IMG/VR virus record: IMGVR_UViG_3300021426_000040
DNA: 37,706 nt
From: a virus
Strand: one strand, 5' to 3'
In this document: positions 1,178 through 4,678 of the stretch, one piece after another
Position numbering within the stretch: the stretch's first letter is position 1
How the letters are laid out: each line of letters starts with the position of its first letter
Program-made: the position numbers and the translations under genes
The notes under the pieces: generated by a model
What the model saw: only the letters and a program-made list of their open reading frames with translations
The model's database searches: none
What the model was told of the DNA's origin: nothing

Positions 1178-1211
1178 TGAGTACGTAAAAGGACTTTATG
1201 TGATAGTTTCT

Positions 1212-1239
1212 TTTATATGAGGTATTGATAGTACCTCAA
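1212..1239 (-). promoter_or_regulatory. Candidate int promoter: TTGAGG, 16-nt spacer, TATAAA (read on the minus strand)
   Basis: -35 at 1239-1234 and -10 at 1217-1212, about 90 nt upstream of the int ATG. Confidence 0.3.
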
Positions 1240-1243
1240 TCTT

Positions 1244-1277
1244 ACTCTCCTGTTGGTAGCAGGGGAGTTTTTTATTT
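1244..1277 (+). terminator. Intrinsic terminator with no upstream plus-strand gene
   Basis: 9-bp stem ACTCTCCTG / CAGGGGAGT (one G.U pair), 7-nt loop, followed by TTTTTATTT. Confidence 0.6.
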
Positions 1278-1281
1278 GCAT

Positions 1282-1314
1282 AAAGCAAAAGCCCCTTATC
1301 TTTTGATAAGGAGC
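1282..1314 (-). terminator. Intrinsic terminator downstream of the S24 remnant
   Basis: Stem CCTTATC-tttt-GATAAGG, extended by GC pairs. The minus-strand RNA continues UUUUGCUUU. Confidence 0.45.
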
Positions 1315-1403
1315 TTTACTAACCGCATCAGGTGCAGTCATTTCTGTTCCTTATCATTATATACATCAAAAAAGATTTTATCAATGCTTTTTAAATCCAC
1401 ATC

Positions 1404-1631
1404 TTATATTACATCACTTTGAAAAGCGACGGCTCTTCCGATAACCCTAACTTGATTCAACTGCTCACCAGTAAGGATTATATCCTGATACTTTGGATTC
1501 TCAGGCTTTAGAATAACTAGATTCTGTTCACGATAGTAGAAGAATCTTTTTAGTGTAGCCTCATCATCAATGATCACTACAGCAATCGCTCCATTTTCTA
1601 CTATGTCTGTTTTCTTCCATCTTTCCTCCAA
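1404..1631 (-). pseudogene. Remnant of a LexA/CI-type repressor: only the C-terminal part of an S24 peptidase domain
   Basis: The 75-codon ORF ..ATLKRFFYYREQNLVILKPENPKYQDIILTGEQLNQVRVIGRAV.. aligns with the C-terminus of the intact repressor at 2755-3399 (..ATCKKFRQGETFIQLIPMNPSYDPIVIDLNNTNFRVIGIL..). It has no HTH and no Ser (GDSM) motif. Its only start is a TTG buried in a GGAGG, and a terminator lies directly upstream. Confidence 0.6.
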
Positions 1632-1633
1632 AC

Positions 1634-1661
1634 AAAAAACACCAGCTTTCTAGGCTAGTGT
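1634..1661 (-). terminator. Strong intrinsic terminator, best on the minus strand
   Basis: Minus-strand RNA forms ACACUAGC-cuagaaa-GCUGGUGU (8 bp with one G.U) followed by UUUUUGUU. On the plus strand the same stem has a C.A mismatch. Confidence 0.65.
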
Positions 1662-1830
1662 TTTTAATGAGTGCTAGCGAGTGCATCAGATGACTGACCA
1701 CTCCACCCATAGGATACTTGATGCGTCCCCTCCAGGGTCATGGCTGAGCAGGCCAGGGGATACGGTGCTAGCTCCGTATTCGCTTTCTTGCGAACATGTT
1801 ATTATTAACACTAGTGATATTCAGTTGTAA
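1634..1830 (-). ncRNA. Candidate ~195-nt structured non-coding RNA
   Basis: Bounded by a candidate promoter (1837-1865) and the terminator (1634-1661). A GC-rich core at about 1670-1795 sits in AT-rich surroundings. It contains helices GCATCA/TGATGC, TCCCCT/AGGGGA, TTCGC/GCGAA and a duplicated GTGCTAGC. No ORF has an SD. Confidence 0.25.
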
Positions 1831-1836
1831 AGCATT

Positions 1837-1865
1837 ATTATATTTTTTTGGATCCTAGAATTCAT
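1837..1865 (-). promoter_or_regulatory. Candidate promoter: ATGAAT, 17-nt spacer, TATAAT (read on the minus strand)
   Basis: Consensus -10 TATAAT at 1842-1837 and a weak -35 at 1865-1860. Confidence 0.3.
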
Positions 1866-1911
1866 TTATGGCCATTAGGCACAGCATAAAACGCCTTCAT
1901 GGGTAAAATAT

Positions 1912-1935
1912 TGTGTTCTTAAATGTGTTCTTAAA
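1912..1935. repeat. Perfect tandem duplication of the 12-mer TGTGTTCTTAAA
   Basis: 1912-1923 is identical to 1924-1935. Confidence 0.9.
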
Positions 1936-1993
1936 TATTATCTTTAGTTATGTAGAACATTGCACTACGCTGTAATTAATCTAAATTACAGGT

Positions 1994-2077
1994 AAAATGA
2001 AAGAGCCCTCACAGGGAGGACTCTTCTTCAGTGGCGCAATGGCCGTTGTGTTTAACAGTGGCGTATAGCCGTTGTTC
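1994..2077 (-). ncRNA. Candidate ~80-nt small RNA carrying two tandem ~25-nt repeats, directly downstream of the MazF-like gene
   Basis: Near-consensus promoter at 2084-2112. Repeats TTGAACAACGGCTATACGCCACTG and TTAAACACAACGGCCATTGCGCCACTG (minus-strand reading, 2079-2029). Terminator hairpin AGAGTCCTC-cctgt-GAGGGCTCT plus TTCATTTT at 2024-1994. Confidence 0.35.
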
Positions 2078-2079
2078 AA
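2029..2079. repeat. Two imperfect tandem direct repeats of 27 and 24 bp
   Basis: Plus strand: CAGTGGCGcaatgGCCGTTGTgTTtAA followed by CAGTGGCGtataGCCGTTGTTcAA. Confidence 0.85.
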
Positions 2080-2083
2080 CTGT

Positions 2084-2112
2084 ATATTATCCTATAACTG
2101 AAGATTTGTCAA
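2084..2112 (-). promoter_or_regulatory. Near-consensus sigma-A promoter: TTGACA, 17-nt spacer, TAATAT
   Basis: -35 TTGACA at 2112-2107 and -10 TAATAT at 2089-2084. It begins 29 nt after the toxin stop codon. Confidence 0.5.
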
Positions 2113-2140
2113 TCCCCTTGATTTACCTGGCTTTTGCCAC

Positions 2141-2674
2141 TTATTTCTTATTTGATTTATCTTTTACAAATAGCTCAATTAACTTAGATTCAATCAAATC
2201 AAGTATCAGGTCATCAGCAATCAATTTCTTTAGTGGGTCATATTTACTTGTTGGTGGTAGGATTTTGTATTTACTTATCGTTGTAATGTTCTGAACAAGA
2301 GCGTAGGACCTCTTATTCTTTTTGATATACATTTCGGCAATATCTTTTAATTCGTTCAGGTTTTTCGTTACTTGATTAATATCTTCTTCGTTATATTGCA
2401 GTCCGTTGTCATCTAGATCTTGGAATATTCTTGTGAATTCTTCTAGTTGACTAATGAGTAATGGGAATATTTGTTTGGATACTATGTTTCCGACATCTAA
2501 ATAATACGCTTTATTCTTAGAACTCAACGGAACGACTGTAAGAACACCATTTCCTGGTGAATCTTTCTTTGTAAGGACAATCGCGAAATGCTTTCCTCTT
2601 AGTTCGCTTCCTGTTGAAGGATTGAAGTTAACAAGGATAATTTGTCCTCTTTTGTACTTTTGAAACCTAGTCAT
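2141..2674 (-). CDS. PemK/MazF-fold toxin-like protein (177 aa) with a ~55-60 aa helical insertion and no adjacent protein antitoxin
   Basis: SD AAGAGGT lies 6 nt before the ATG at 2674, so the track start at 2710 is unlikely. KRGQIILVNFNPSTGSELRGKHFAIVL, LTVVPLSS, SYALVQNITTISKYKI and IADDLILDLIESKLIELF match MazF/EndoA blocks ([43 protein letters not shown]). Confidence 0.7.
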   Translation of the reverse strand: MTRFQKYKRGQIILVNFNPSTGSELRGKHFAIVLTKKDSPGNGVLTVVPLSSKNKAYYLDVGNIVSKQIFPLLISQLEEFTRIFQDLDDNGLQYNEEDINQVTKNLNELKDIAEMYIKKNKRSYALVQNITTISKYKILPPTSKYDPLKKLIADDLILDLIESKLIELFVKDKSNKK

Positions 2675-2754
2675 GAATTTACCTCTTTTTTTGAAATGAT
2701 GATTTGTCAAATTTAAAAACGCTTAGCTGTTTGTAAAGCTGTTTTATAAAATCC

Positions 2755-3399
2755 CTAGAACTCCTTTATGGCCCTCTTGAGGATGCCGATCACGCGAAAG
2801 TTTGTGTTGTTCAGGTCAATTACAATGGGATCGTAGCTGGGATTCATGGGAATGAGCTGGATGAAGGTCTCGCCCTGCCTGAACTTCTTGCATGTCGCTA
2901 TGCCGTCGTCTATGCAGAACGAACCGATCTGTCCGCTCTCTATTGAGCTGGACTTCTTGAATATGAGAAGGTCTCCGTCGTTTATGCCGGCATTGATCAT
3001 GGAGTCACCGCTTGCGATCTGGGCGAAGTAATCGGATTCGGAGCCGGCAAGCCCGTTGGAAACGACCTCTATCATATCGACAAGGTTGTCATCAACGAAC
3101 ATGCCGTTTCCACATGAGATGTCACCATATAGCGGAATGGTGATGAATGAGATGGGATGCGGTGCGCTGAGGTTGGATGGCTTGTTTTCAACTAGATCAG
3201 ATTTTTCTATTCCAAAATAATTGGCAAGCATTTCAATCTTGTCTATTCGCGGATATGTTTTAGCGTTGAGCCAATCTGCCAAAGTTGTATAAGCAATACC
3301 TAAAGAAGACGATAATTGATTTCTTGAAACATTGTTCTTGTTCATATAGTACTTGAGATTATTAGCCATTGTTTTCTTATTTCCTAGATTATTATTCAT
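2755..3399 (-). CDS. CI/LexA-like prophage repressor: N-terminal XRE HTH plus C-terminal S24 peptidase
   Basis: HTH: NVSRNQLSSSLGIAYTTLADWLNAKTYP. S24: SGDSM (Ser), CKKF (Lys), and a candidate cleavage site in GLAGSE. SD GAGGTG lies 6 nt before the ATG at 3399; the track GTG at 3408 is part of the SD. Confidence 0.85.
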   Translation of the reverse strand: MNNNLGNKKTMANNLKYYMNKNNVSRNQLSSSLGIAYTTLADWLNAKTYPRIDKIEMLANYFGIEKSDLVENKPSNLSAPHPISFITIPLYGDISCGNGMFVDDNLVDMIEVVSNGLAGSESDYFAQIASGDSMINAGINDGDLLIFKKSSSIESGQIGSFCIDDGIATCKKFRQGETFIQLIPMNPSYDPIVIDLNNTNFRVIGILKRAIKEF

Positions 3400-3417
3400 A
3401 AAGTTCACCTCAAGATA

Positions 3418-3687: not shown

Positions 3688-3903
3688 TTGAATTCGATTG
3701 AAAAATATACACTTAAGACTGCGAGAGAAAAAGCTGGACTAAAGCAAAGCGAAGCAGCTGAAGAATTAAACATTAGTGTAGATACTCTTTCAAACTACGA
3801 AAGAGGAAAAACGTATCCAGATGTTCTATTAATCAAAAAGATAGAAGATTTATACAACGTTAATTACAATCAAATTATTTTTTTGAACAAAAATAACGGT
3901 TAA
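3688..3903 (+). CDS. Cro-like XRE-family HTH regulator (71 aa, TTG start)
   Basis: SD AAAGGGGGTG 6-7 nt upstream. HTH: LKQSEAAEELNISVDTLSNYERGKTYP. It is divergent from the repressor. Confidence 0.8.
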   Translation: MNSIEKYTLKTAREKAGLKQSEAAEELNISVDTLSNYERGKTYPDVLLIKKIEDLYNVNYNQIIFLNKNNG

Positions 3904-3931: not shown

Positions 3932-4678
3932 ATGAATAGTTTGCAAGTATTTAAAAATAATGAATTTCAAATCAAAGCAGTATTGATTGAAGAAGAGCCA
4001 CATTTTCTAGGAAGTGAAGTGGCTAAAATGTTAGGTTACTCAAACCCTCAAAAAGCTATTAGAGACCATATTGATGAAGAAGATAAGCTGACTGAACGAA
4101 TCGTTCTGTCAGGTCAAAACAGAGAAGCCGTCCTCATCAACGAATCAGGTCTCTATTCACTGATTCTCTCGTCAAAGCTTGAAAGTGCAAAACGCTTTAA
4201 ACGATGGGTCACTAGCGAGGTGCTCCCACAAATTAGAAAAAGTGGTGCTTATCTTACTGATGAAAAAGCCTATGACATCACTCACAATCCCAACTCACTG
4301 GCTGATTTGCTTCTTCAGGCTGGTGAACAGCTGAAGAAAAAGGACATCGTAATTAATGAAATGAAGCCCAAGGCACTTTTCGCTGATGCGGTGGCAAGCT
4401 CGCATACGTCTATTCTTGTAGGTGACCTTGCAAAGCTCATCAAGCAAAACGGATATGACATCGGACAGAACAGACTGTTCGCTTGGATGAAGGACAATGG
4501 CTACCTGATCAAGGGCGGAGACAGAAAGAACATGCCGACACAAAAGTCCATGGAGCTTGGACTGTTTGAAGTGAAGGAAAGAACAATTGCCAATCCCGAC
4601 GGAAGTGTAAGAATCACCAGAACACCTAAGGTAACTGGCAAGGGCCAGCAGTATTTCATTAATAAGTTCCTTCAATAA
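3932..4678 (+). CDS. Phage antirepressor with an N-terminal Bro-N domain and a C-terminal KilAC/ANT domain
   Basis: SD GGAGG. N-terminal FQIKAVLIEEEPHFLGSEVAKMLGYSNPQKAIRDHIDEEDK. C-terminal ALFADAVASSHTSILVGDLAKLIKQNGYDIGQNRLFAWMKDNGYL. Confidence 0.8.
   Translation: MNSLQVFKNNEFQIKAVLIEEEPHFLGSEVAKMLGYSNPQKAIRDHIDEEDKLTERIVLSGQNREAVLINESGLYSLILSSKLESAKRFKRWVTSEVLPQIRKSGAYLTDEKAYDITHNPNSLADLLLQAGEQLKKKDIVINEMKPKALFADAVASSHTSILVGDLAKLIKQNGYDIGQNRLFAWMKDNGYLIKGGDRKNMPTQKSMELGLFEVKERTIANPDGSVRITRTPKVTGKGQQYFINKFLQ

Follow-up and report, generated by a model that had tools for sequence, protein, structure and literature searches.

Here we describe a compact gene pair from the left end of a viral sequence, IMG/VR record IMGVR_UViG_3300021426_000040, in which the gene of a MazF-fold protein, a putative toxin, is directly followed by a short unit predicted to yield a small structured RNA (1994-2112, minus strand). 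All coordinates refer to the whole stretch of 37,706 nucleotides that was analysed, hereafter the window. A prophage lysogeny region, described here along the minus strand, occupies its left end, and the toxin gene (2141..2674, minus strand; stop codon TAA at 2143-2141) encodes 177 amino acids forming a MazF/PemK beta-barrel with an insertion.

A preliminary description of this DNA had proposed a promoter, two tandem repeats of ~25 nt and a terminator on the minus strand of 1994-2112, and all three elements were recovered there. The promoter is a near-consensus sigma-70-type site, TTGACA-17-TAATAT (2084..2112; -35 box at 2112-2107, -10 box at 2089-2084; 10/12 matches), lying directly after the toxin stop as had been claimed, with a gap of 28 nt between the stop codon and the -35 box instead of the 29 nt first given. 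It is followed by repeat 1 (24 nt, UUGAACAACGGCUAUACGCCACUG, 2079-2056) and repeat 2 (27 nt, UUAAACACAACGGCCAUUGCGCCACUG, 2055-2029), of which an automated repeat search recovered only an 11-nt core at a spacing of 26 nt, and then by an intrinsic terminator (1994..2026) made of a stem-loop (2026-2000, 11 pairs including G-U) and the tract CAUUUU, which ends at 1994. The predicted transcript, its start placed from the -10 box and its end from the terminator U-tract, would span 1994..2077 and measure ~80-84 nt. Moreover, the site scan found no terminator-like site on the minus strand between the toxin stop and the unit, again in agreement with the initial account; therefore, toxin mRNA reading through this point would carry the hairpins described below and share their terminator.

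Each of the two repeats is more accurately viewed as a small hairpin. In the minimum free energy fold, hairpin 1 (2054..2076, minus strand) has an upper stem GGC(2070-2068)/GCC(2062-2060) closed by the loop UAUAC, an AC/AC internal loop, a lower stem AACA/UGUU and a 3' tail ACUG (2059-2056), and hairpin 2 (2029..2048, minus strand) has a stem GGC(2044-2042)/GCC(2035-2033), a loop CAUUGC and the same tail ACUG (2032-2029); both are preceded by a short A/U/C-rich 5' flank. The fold of the 85-nt transcript is better than that of shuffled sequences (z = -3.1; 1/200 shuffles as good). Across the 5-kb region scanned, promoter-like sites number 21 against 11.4 expected and terminator-like sites 11 against 3.5 expected. 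Because such sites exceed chance throughout the region, any single one of them is weak evidence, and it is the conservation of the unit beside homologous toxins that shows it not to be a chance assembly.

As regards the protein, the earlier claim of a MazF-like toxin carrying an insertion is borne out at the levels of sequence and structure. The Pfam family PF02452 (PemK/MazF) matches residues 8-57 (E = 1.4e-11), and in a profile search of the PDB both halves of the protein (residues ~11-64 and ~124-160) match MazF/PemK structures. An AlphaFold2 model derived from 27 homologues (predicted local distance difference test, pLDDT, 88.7; predicted template modelling score, pTM, 0.80) presents a MazF barrel split by a ~60-residue helical hairpin (residues 64-118, with helices 64-89 and 96-118) and completed by a C-terminal helix. 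When this model was compared with the PDB by Foldseek, the top 50/50 matches were MazF/PemK-type toxins (template modelling score 0.63-0.77, normalised by target length), with MazF-mt1, Escherichia coli MazF and Staphylococcus aureus MazF as top matches. The catalytic residues of E. coli MazF are Arg29 and Thr52; in the toxin family alignment an invariant His29 stands at the position of Arg29, Ser51 and the invariant Ser52 align with Thr52 and Thr53, and Glu24 is nearly invariant.

The family is large: clustering at 50% identity yields 149 clusters for E<=1e-30 and 731 for E<=1e-10. It corresponds to PHROG 1412, whose annotation, 'antitoxin mazE-like', looks like a misnomer for a MazF-fold protein. 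GenBank phage records with homologues number 130, of which 67 are streptococcal and 63 staphylococcal; there the homologues are named 'PemK domain phage protein', 'antitoxin mazE-like' or hypothetical. Most relatives are longer, with 230-310 amino acids, a helical N-terminal extension of ~50-65 residues and a longer insertion (for example P0046, P0057, P0064, P0074, P0083 and P0110), and the 177-residue protein of the window is a minimal form.

Conservation and folding of the RNA beside homologous toxins

Relatives of the toxin were collected at 179 loci (labelled with L-numbers), namely 19 from species-representative genomes (Holdemanella, Coprobacillus, Longicatena, Erysipelotrichaceae, Companilactobacillus, Apilactobacillus and others), 80 from IMG/VR and 80 from metagenomes, to which pneumococcal phage K13 and 44 relatives were added afterwards. 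The 170-240 nt following each toxin stop were inspected, and the counts given below refer to 49 distinct downstream regions from 126 full-length loci. The same layout recurs almost everywhere: a sigma-70-type promoter abutting or overlapping the toxin stop, two small hairpins and a strong terminator. Absence or lack of conservation of the repeats near homologous toxins had been named beforehand as an outcome that would count against the proposal; what was found is that the layout is kept beside toxins 27-65% identical, in Erysipelotrichales, gut metagenomes, Streptococcus pneumoniae phages and staphylococcal elements.

In quantitative terms, a promoter matching at least 9/12 positions is present in 48/49 regions, and at least 10/12 in 36/49, with its -35 box between -50 and +35 of the toxin stop and mostly between -21 and +28. 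A terminator satisfying a strict criterion is found at the same relative position in 45/49 regions, and three of the four failures (the window's own sequence, L014 and L048) have a terminator on inspection. The energy of the best two hairpins, compared with dinucleotide shuffles, gives a combined Fisher p of 7e-15; the median per-locus p is 0.09, a weak value per locus because the stems comprise only 3-6 pairs.

Evidence for the helices themselves was sought in compensatory changes. In an alignment made by MAFFT from sequence only, fitted to no structure and including 16 RNAs of the window's clade and its neighbours (A4), seven of the eight upper-stem pairs are changed on both sides, and the covariation score is 0.378 as against 0.156 +/- 0.030 in shuffles, none of 500 reaching it; when the pairing partners are slid by 1-3 columns, all scores are lower. 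A covariance model built from A4 (R1) finds the RNA unit at the expected place in 26/29 sources searched, including loci outside the seed, with E from 6e-14 to 0.02. The resulting alignment of 26 RNAs (A6), which is fitted to R1 and hence biased towards the structure, has 80.8% of its cells paired and 21 compensatory changes, and 0/500 shuffles reach the observed score. As to the individual helices, the upper stem of hairpin 1 covaries in A4 and A6, and all four modelled pairs of hairpin 2 are changed on both sides in relatives (A4 and A6).

A single covariance model for the entire family was tried and rejected, as R1 recovers only the window's clade and its nearest relatives. Its matches are weak and non-significant in L014 (E = 1.2, at the expected spot) and in L068 (E = 0.24, mostly over the promoter); it misses the streptococcal and the other staphylococcal loci, whose hairpins MAFFT fails to register. 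In those clades hairpins were found locus by locus, a procedure that selects for pairing, so that the following survey of 35 diverse loci is descriptive only. Its 70 hairpins have 46 distinct stem sequences, such as GGC/GCC, AGC/GCU, GAAC/GUUC, GCCC/GGGC, GGGA/UCCC, GUAC/GUAC, GUGG/CCAC, GCUG/CAGC and UCCU/AGGA. Loops are mostly of 5-6 nt, usually starting with CU, UA or UU and ending with GC, AC or AG, and G never follows the stem on its 3' side. Within one RNA, the two hairpins differ in stem sequence in 28/35 loci, the loop and flanks being usually shared on inspection, and the spacer between them is short, A/U-rich and conserved within clades. A scan of viral sequences with the pneumococcal toxin returned almost only copies 96-100% identical, hence little additional covariation, and L219 (73% identical) has a compensatory hairpin 2.

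Altogether, it is the structure of the RNA and not its sequence that is conserved. With respect to the preliminary description, this means that the repeats stand as a two-hairpin layout with conserved loop and flank features and covarying stems; the repeat sequence itself is not conserved, and the 'ACA-type motif' that had been remarked in both copies does not hold across the family. Stems that vary while loop and flanks are shared are what one would expect of an RNA whose loop, flanks and helix shape are read by a protein.

These data also bear on whether the repeats could be features of the DNA, such as operators, integrase arm sites or recombination scars, or else a fortuitous combination of promoter-like and terminator-like sequences. 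The unit does lie in the interval from the integrase to the repressor gene, a common place for protein-binding repeats, and AT-rich DNA yields many promoter-like matches, as the excess in the scan illustrates. However, stem complementarity is kept while the sequence changes, and double-stranded DNA sites need no such pairing, on which ground an operator or integrase arm site was rejected; furthermore, the layout is kept across unrelated integration and immunity modules and in non-prophage contexts. We consider an explanation at the DNA level, or by chance, to be barely tenable.

The RNA could not be assigned to a known family. No Rfam family covers the unit in the window and 40 loci at the gathering score, nor was there any match under permissive searches of window positions 1200-2800 (E<=10) and of 15 loci (E<=5). 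The best hit in the window, BSnc120, reaches 22 bits against a gathering score of 114 and was set aside as noise. The pemK motif (RF02913) was likewise rejected as its identity: its covariance model gave no match in the window or in 55 related loci (40 at the gathering score and 15 at E<=5).

Neither does the unit encode a conserved peptide. The median length of the longest open reading frame (ORF) on the RNA strand is 13.5 amino acids, and several loci have none; in the window, a 32-residue ORF with a TTG start (1981-2079) lacks a ribosome-binding site, and ORFs are not conserved among the loci. An antisense RNA of the type I sort was discarded as well: RNA and toxin lie on the same strand, and the duplex that the RNA could form with the toxin translation start is no better than with shuffled sequences (mean z -0.23, n = 44; 3/44 loci below -2). 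The unit proposed from the single sequence is, in sum, a non-coding RNA with its own promoter that is conserved and travels with the toxin family through deep divergence.

Some particular loci deserve mention. In phage K13 (L180 3121-3252; NC_024357 37663-37794), a 43-residue 'phage protein', HH37_gp53, is annotated opposite the conserved RNA unit and is probably a spurious ORF call over a small-RNA gene. In three streptococcal-type RNAs (L056 3570-3690, L060 3630-3745 and L087 3629-3745), a third hairpin stands between the two conserved ones, and the terminator's 3' arm repeats the sequence of the 5' end, CAGUUACU; therefore the 5' end could pair with the terminator 5' arm, closing the RNA or competing with termination.

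Candidate partners of the toxin and possible roles of the RNA

No conserved protein antitoxin lies beside the toxin: upstream neighbours are diverse, and no MazE/PemI-type ORF of at least 50-60 amino acids is conserved upstream of toxin homologues. In the window the gene directly upstream of the toxin (2755..3408, minus strand) encodes a CI/LexA-type phage repressor with helix-turn-helix (HTH) and S24 peptidase domains according to Pfam. The nearest upstream gene is such a repressor in the window's clade, a protein with only an HTH domain in other phages and an integrase in staphylococcal elements of 15-17 kb, and in seven loci (L001, L002, L004, L012, L013, L016 and L018) the upstream genes are unrelated, distant or on the opposite strand. 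The repressor is, consequently, part of the context and not a conserved partner of the toxin, since upstream neighbours vary among homologous loci. The small RNA is the only neighbour constant beside toxin homologues, apart from L154 and L025, which are discussed below. We hold it highly probable that the 1994-2112 unit is a real and conserved RNA partner of the toxin.

In turn, the organization of the locus indicates that the two genes move as one. The toxin gene and the RNA constitute a cassette of ~0.9 kb (about 1874-2730) bracketed by direct repeats of ~50 nt read on the minus strand. The right copy (2725..2773) is the true 3' end of the repressor gene together with the sequence after it, the left copy (1825..1873) resembles the repressor gene 3' end plus GCTTTACAA, and each contains the -35-like hexamer TTTACA. 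These repeats suggest that the cassette would have been inserted or exchanged by recombination at the ~50-nt sequence. Furthermore, in L038 the repressor is close to that of the window by inspection, the toxin is only 55% identical, and the RNA tails read ACGAGA instead of ACUG. From the bracketing repeats and this mismatch it follows that toxin and RNA are exchanged together, independently of the repressor; the RNA also diverges in step with the toxin clades.

As to what the RNA does for the toxin, the reading that we favour, and to which we give an even chance, is that it is an antitoxin: the locus would be a toxin-antitoxin (TA) pair resembling type III systems with the gene order reversed, whose two-hairpin RNA would neutralise the toxin by binding it. 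The toxin would be made at a low level, either from a weak promoter-like site recognised by consensus scan only (TTTACA-16-TAAATT, 9/12; 2710..2737, minus strand), upstream of the gene within the right direct repeat copy, or by read-through from the repressor gene, with which it may also be co-transcribed. Toxin transcripts would run to the shared terminator, each carrying the two hairpins in its 3' untranslated region (UTR), and the near-consensus promoter at the toxin stop would add an excess of free ~80-nt RNA. The toxin would be bound by the hairpins, plausibly with each protomer of a MazF-type dimer taking one, and its RNA-binding groove would be blocked. Recognition could proceed through the loop (starting Y-U or U-A and ending R-C), the G-free flanks and the shape of the stem, with the loop and tail of each hairpin occupying the RNA grooves of the dimer. 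MazF dimers have two-fold symmetry, and the presence of two hairpins, matching it, suggests one RNA per dimer. A role as decoy or pseudosubstrate, put forward in the preliminary description, is one possibility among several. Once the supply of RNA ends, be it by prophage loss, by transcription shut-off upon infection by a phage or by RNA decay, the more stable protein would be freed and would cleave cellular or phage RNA.

The same architecture could be read in cis. The hairpins might serve mainly as the 3' UTR of the toxin mRNA, as a stability element or as a site that the toxin itself binds or cleaves in an autoregulatory manner, and not as an antitoxin in trans. Read-through transcripts must carry the hairpins, as no terminator separates them from the toxin ORF; several loci have their RNA promoter overlapping the last part of the ORF, which in L038 extends into hairpin 1. 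Nevertheless, a dedicated near-consensus promoter, kept in 48 of the 49 distinct loci, would be needless for a purely cis element. Moreover, roles in cis and in trans are compatible, and the clostridial RNA RCd22 does both (PMC12373285). A function mainly in cis is rather improbable in our estimation.

Decaying copies of the cassette hint at toxicity and dependence. Toxin pseudogenes are frequent in gut-metagenome copies (L132, L133, L135, L136, L143, L163-L168, L170, L175 and others), in which the RNA is usually kept. For the Holdemanella-type clade, 30 loci were classified by toxin integrity and number of hairpins. All 17 loci with an intact toxin have two hairpins and none has one, whereas among the 13 with a disrupted or incomplete toxin, 10 have two and three (L135, L167 and L168) have one. 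Disruptions in the clade consist of a nonsense change at codon 8, stops near codon 70, or frameshifts together with His29Tyr, and those of the single-hairpin loci are the codon 8 nonsense change or the frameshifts with His29Tyr. Loss of a hairpin beside a broken toxin agrees with a protein that does harm and whose RNA partner is no longer needed after its inactivation.

An RNA that turns the protein on has also to be considered, either as a cofactor, activator or specificity element of the nuclease, comparable to a handle or guide, or as a sensor that an invading phage would destroy or modify. The partnership as such, and loops and flanks of the kind that proteins recognise, would be equally compatible with activation; no PADLOC model matches the toxin, so that no known defence system claims it; and prophages and satellites carry the cassette in their lysogeny, 'moron' region. 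On the other hand, the short, A/U-rich spacer that separates the hairpins is kept within each clade instead of being diversified like a guide, and both the frequent toxin pseudogenes that keep their RNA and the loss of hairpins only beside broken toxins fit an antidote better. We regard an activating role as unlikely.

Several observations weigh against the antitoxin proposal. The association between a single hairpin and a broken toxin (3/13 versus 0/17) has a Fisher p of about 0.07 and is only suggestive. The hairpins are very small (3-6 bp), and their folding statistics are individually weak per locus. Since an invariant His replaces the canonical catalytic Arg of MazF, nuclease activity itself is something that we infer. 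Toxicity, binding and neutralisation by the RNA, as well as the trigger, are likewise inferred, and co-inheritance alone is no proof of a functional interaction, because adjacent genes share ancestry anyway. Furthermore, two loci have an apparently intact toxin and no cognate RNA: in L154 (2139-2250) a different sequence begins immediately behind the -10 box, and in L025 (3519-3657) homology stops 23 nt past the stop codon, near the contig end. These junctions may be insertions or assembly junctions. Two family members are present on one contig in other cases (L138/L155 and L131/L150), and a second member on the contig could supply the RNA in trans.

The helical insertion raises a further objection. 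Residues 64-118 are acidic, with abundant Asp and Glu like the C-terminal tail of MazE, and the insertion could act as an intramolecular inhibitor or sensor, in which case an RNA antitoxin would be unnecessary. More generally, the toxin might be controlled otherwise, by this insertion or by the upstream repressor or HTH protein, or might not be toxic at all, the RNA being an independent prophage regulator of other targets. The HTH/S24 repressor that lies 0-80 nt upstream of the toxin on the same strand in many phage loci speaks for such control, and so do the intact toxins of L154 and L025. Yet the upstream partners are not conserved, as seen in the staphylococcal integrase and in the seven loci with opposite-strand or distant genes, and it is the RNA, the only universal neighbour, that diverges with the toxin clades in a cassette exchanged as a unit. 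The probability that we assign to this alternative is low.

Relation to known toxin-antitoxin systems

In textbooks, type II toxins are exemplified by MazF/PemK proteins, whose descriptions always include a protein antitoxin, and RNA-neutralised toxins by those of the ToxN type, whose fold is related to Kid/MazF. One of the closest analogies to the antitoxin reading is with the type III systems (ToxIN, CptIN and TenpIN, and AbiQ/antiQ). As in these, a protein toxin, probably an endoribonuclease, and a short, repeated, structured RNA would share one cassette with no protein antitoxin; they too reside on mobile elements, are linked to phage exclusion and have a transcription architecture that sets the ratio of RNA to toxin. 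The differences are equally clear. The window toxin belongs to PemK/MazF (PF02452) and not to ToxN, CptN or TenpN, and no ToxN-family match was obtained for it in Pfam, NCBIfam, the PDB profile search or Foldseek. Its two tandem units are placed downstream of the toxin, whereas the type III array immediately precedes it, and a repeat search of the window sequence found no comparable array upstream. RNA excess would be ensured here by an internal strong promoter at the toxin stop with a shared terminator, in place of the leaky, Rho-independent intergenic terminator of type III loci, and the units are two hairpins of ~25 nt as against 2-5.5 repeats of 34-45 nt. Moreover, the assembly proposed, a MazF-type dimer with one two-hairpin RNA, contrasts with the cyclic complexes of ToxIN and CptIN. 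In type III systems the RNA inhibits the toxin protein by binding, and the toxin processes the repeat array.

With MazEF and PemIK (Kis-Kid), the locus shares the fold of the toxin and Glu24, nearly invariant in the family, and it has Ser at the Thr active-site positions. It departs from them by the absence of a MazE/PemI gene upstream of the window toxin, by the invariant His in place of the catalytic Arg and by the ~60-residue helical insertion, to which most relatives add an N-terminal extension of ~55 residues. It differs from type I systems in that the RNA is encoded on the same strand and its predicted duplex with the translation start is no better than shuffles. As for the pemK RNA motif (RF02913), it was likewise defined by bioinformatics and named for its association with pemK, and its model matches neither our window nor the 55 related loci mentioned above.

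Another parallel in logic is RCd22, a non-coding RNA of a Clostridioides difficile prophage with two conserved structured motifs, which neutralises AbiF(Cd) by direct RNA-protein binding, in cis and in trans (PMC12373285). RCd22 is associated with the 5' side of its toxin and also lowers toxin transcription (PMC12373285). The logic of a prophage toxin and a two-motif RNA would be common to both, neutralisation being demonstrated for RCd22 and proposed here. The toxin of that system, however, belongs to the Abi_2/AbiD/F family and ours to the MazF fold, and the abiF motif is of the Rfam type, whereas the window RNA matches no Rfam family.

A broader proposal, which we put at slightly less than an even chance, is that these loci form a widespread and unrecognised class of RNA antitoxins, in which a MazF-family toxin with a helical insertion and His for Arg is held by a downstream RNA, one hairpin per dimer protomer. 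Prophages and satellites of Streptococcus, Staphylococcus and gut Bacillota would carry such a system in their lysogeny modules, packed into a cassette of ~0.9 kb and serving prophage addiction or superinfection exclusion. In agreement with the statement that the arrangement lacked a known description, no account of this RNA or of an RNA-controlled MazF-family toxin was found in the full-text literature, subscription-only literature not being covered.

If correct, a branch of the MazF family with a structured small RNA as its only conserved partner would bridge types II and III; the chemistry of the antitoxin would be swappable on one toxin fold, and the locus would represent a new compact module of RNA-protein recognition. 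The toxin family is present in lysogeny modules of S. pneumoniae prophages, in streptococcal satellites and in S. aureus elements, where the RNA is unannotated or lies under a probably spurious opposite-strand ORF, and the system has been missed by repeat-based type III searches, Rfam and PADLOC. It could affect the stability of prophages, the exclusion of phages and the reading of 'orphan' mazF genes.

The surrounding lysogeny region

Window positions 1300-2800 have no match at the DNA level among GenBank phages, and a search for transfer RNA and transfer-messenger RNA genes found none. The integrase gene (minus strand) is cut by the start of the window; beyond the repressor follow a divergent cro-like gene (3688-3903) and then an antirepressor gene (3932-4678). 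Between the terminator of the small RNA and the left direct repeat lies a perfect tandem duplication, 2 x 12 nt, of TGTGTTCTTAAA (1912-1935).

Other known RNAs cluster just past the cassette in related loci. The S. pyogenes small RNA Spy779816 (RF02589) is found on the opposite strand in streptococcal phages (L056 3685-3771, L181 1528-1611 and L219 1504-1589, all on the minus strand), the skipping-rope RNA (RF02924) in L045 (3782-3852, plus strand), and rli28 together with the type I antitoxin RatA in L014 (3930-4266).

Beyond the left direct repeat, the window contains two more units composed of a promoter and a terminator. The first, at 1632-1832 (minus strand), has a TTTACA...TAATAAT promoter, a strong terminator at 1668-1636 and a GC-rich segment of ~130 nt whose fold reaches -59.4 kcal/mol (z = -3.4; 0/200 shuffles as good). 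It has no Rfam match, and the only fetched loci in which it recurs are copies of the same phage (L020, L100 and L101), which have ~60 extra nt within it. Next to it, an ORF of 75 amino acids (1404-1631, minus strand) corresponds to only the C-terminal half of an S24 (LexA/CI) peptidase, and at the DNA level it shares 91-97% identity with the 3' ends of the full-length repressor genes that precede toxin homologues in L021-L037 and L102-L112. It is the remnant of a second immunity module, which makes this region a mosaic. The other unit, at 1288-1384 (minus strand), consists of TTGATA-17-TATAAT (11/12) followed by a 13-bp terminator (1317-1288) and adjoins the stop of this truncated repressor fragment, the position at which L021-L037 have the toxin-RNA cassette.

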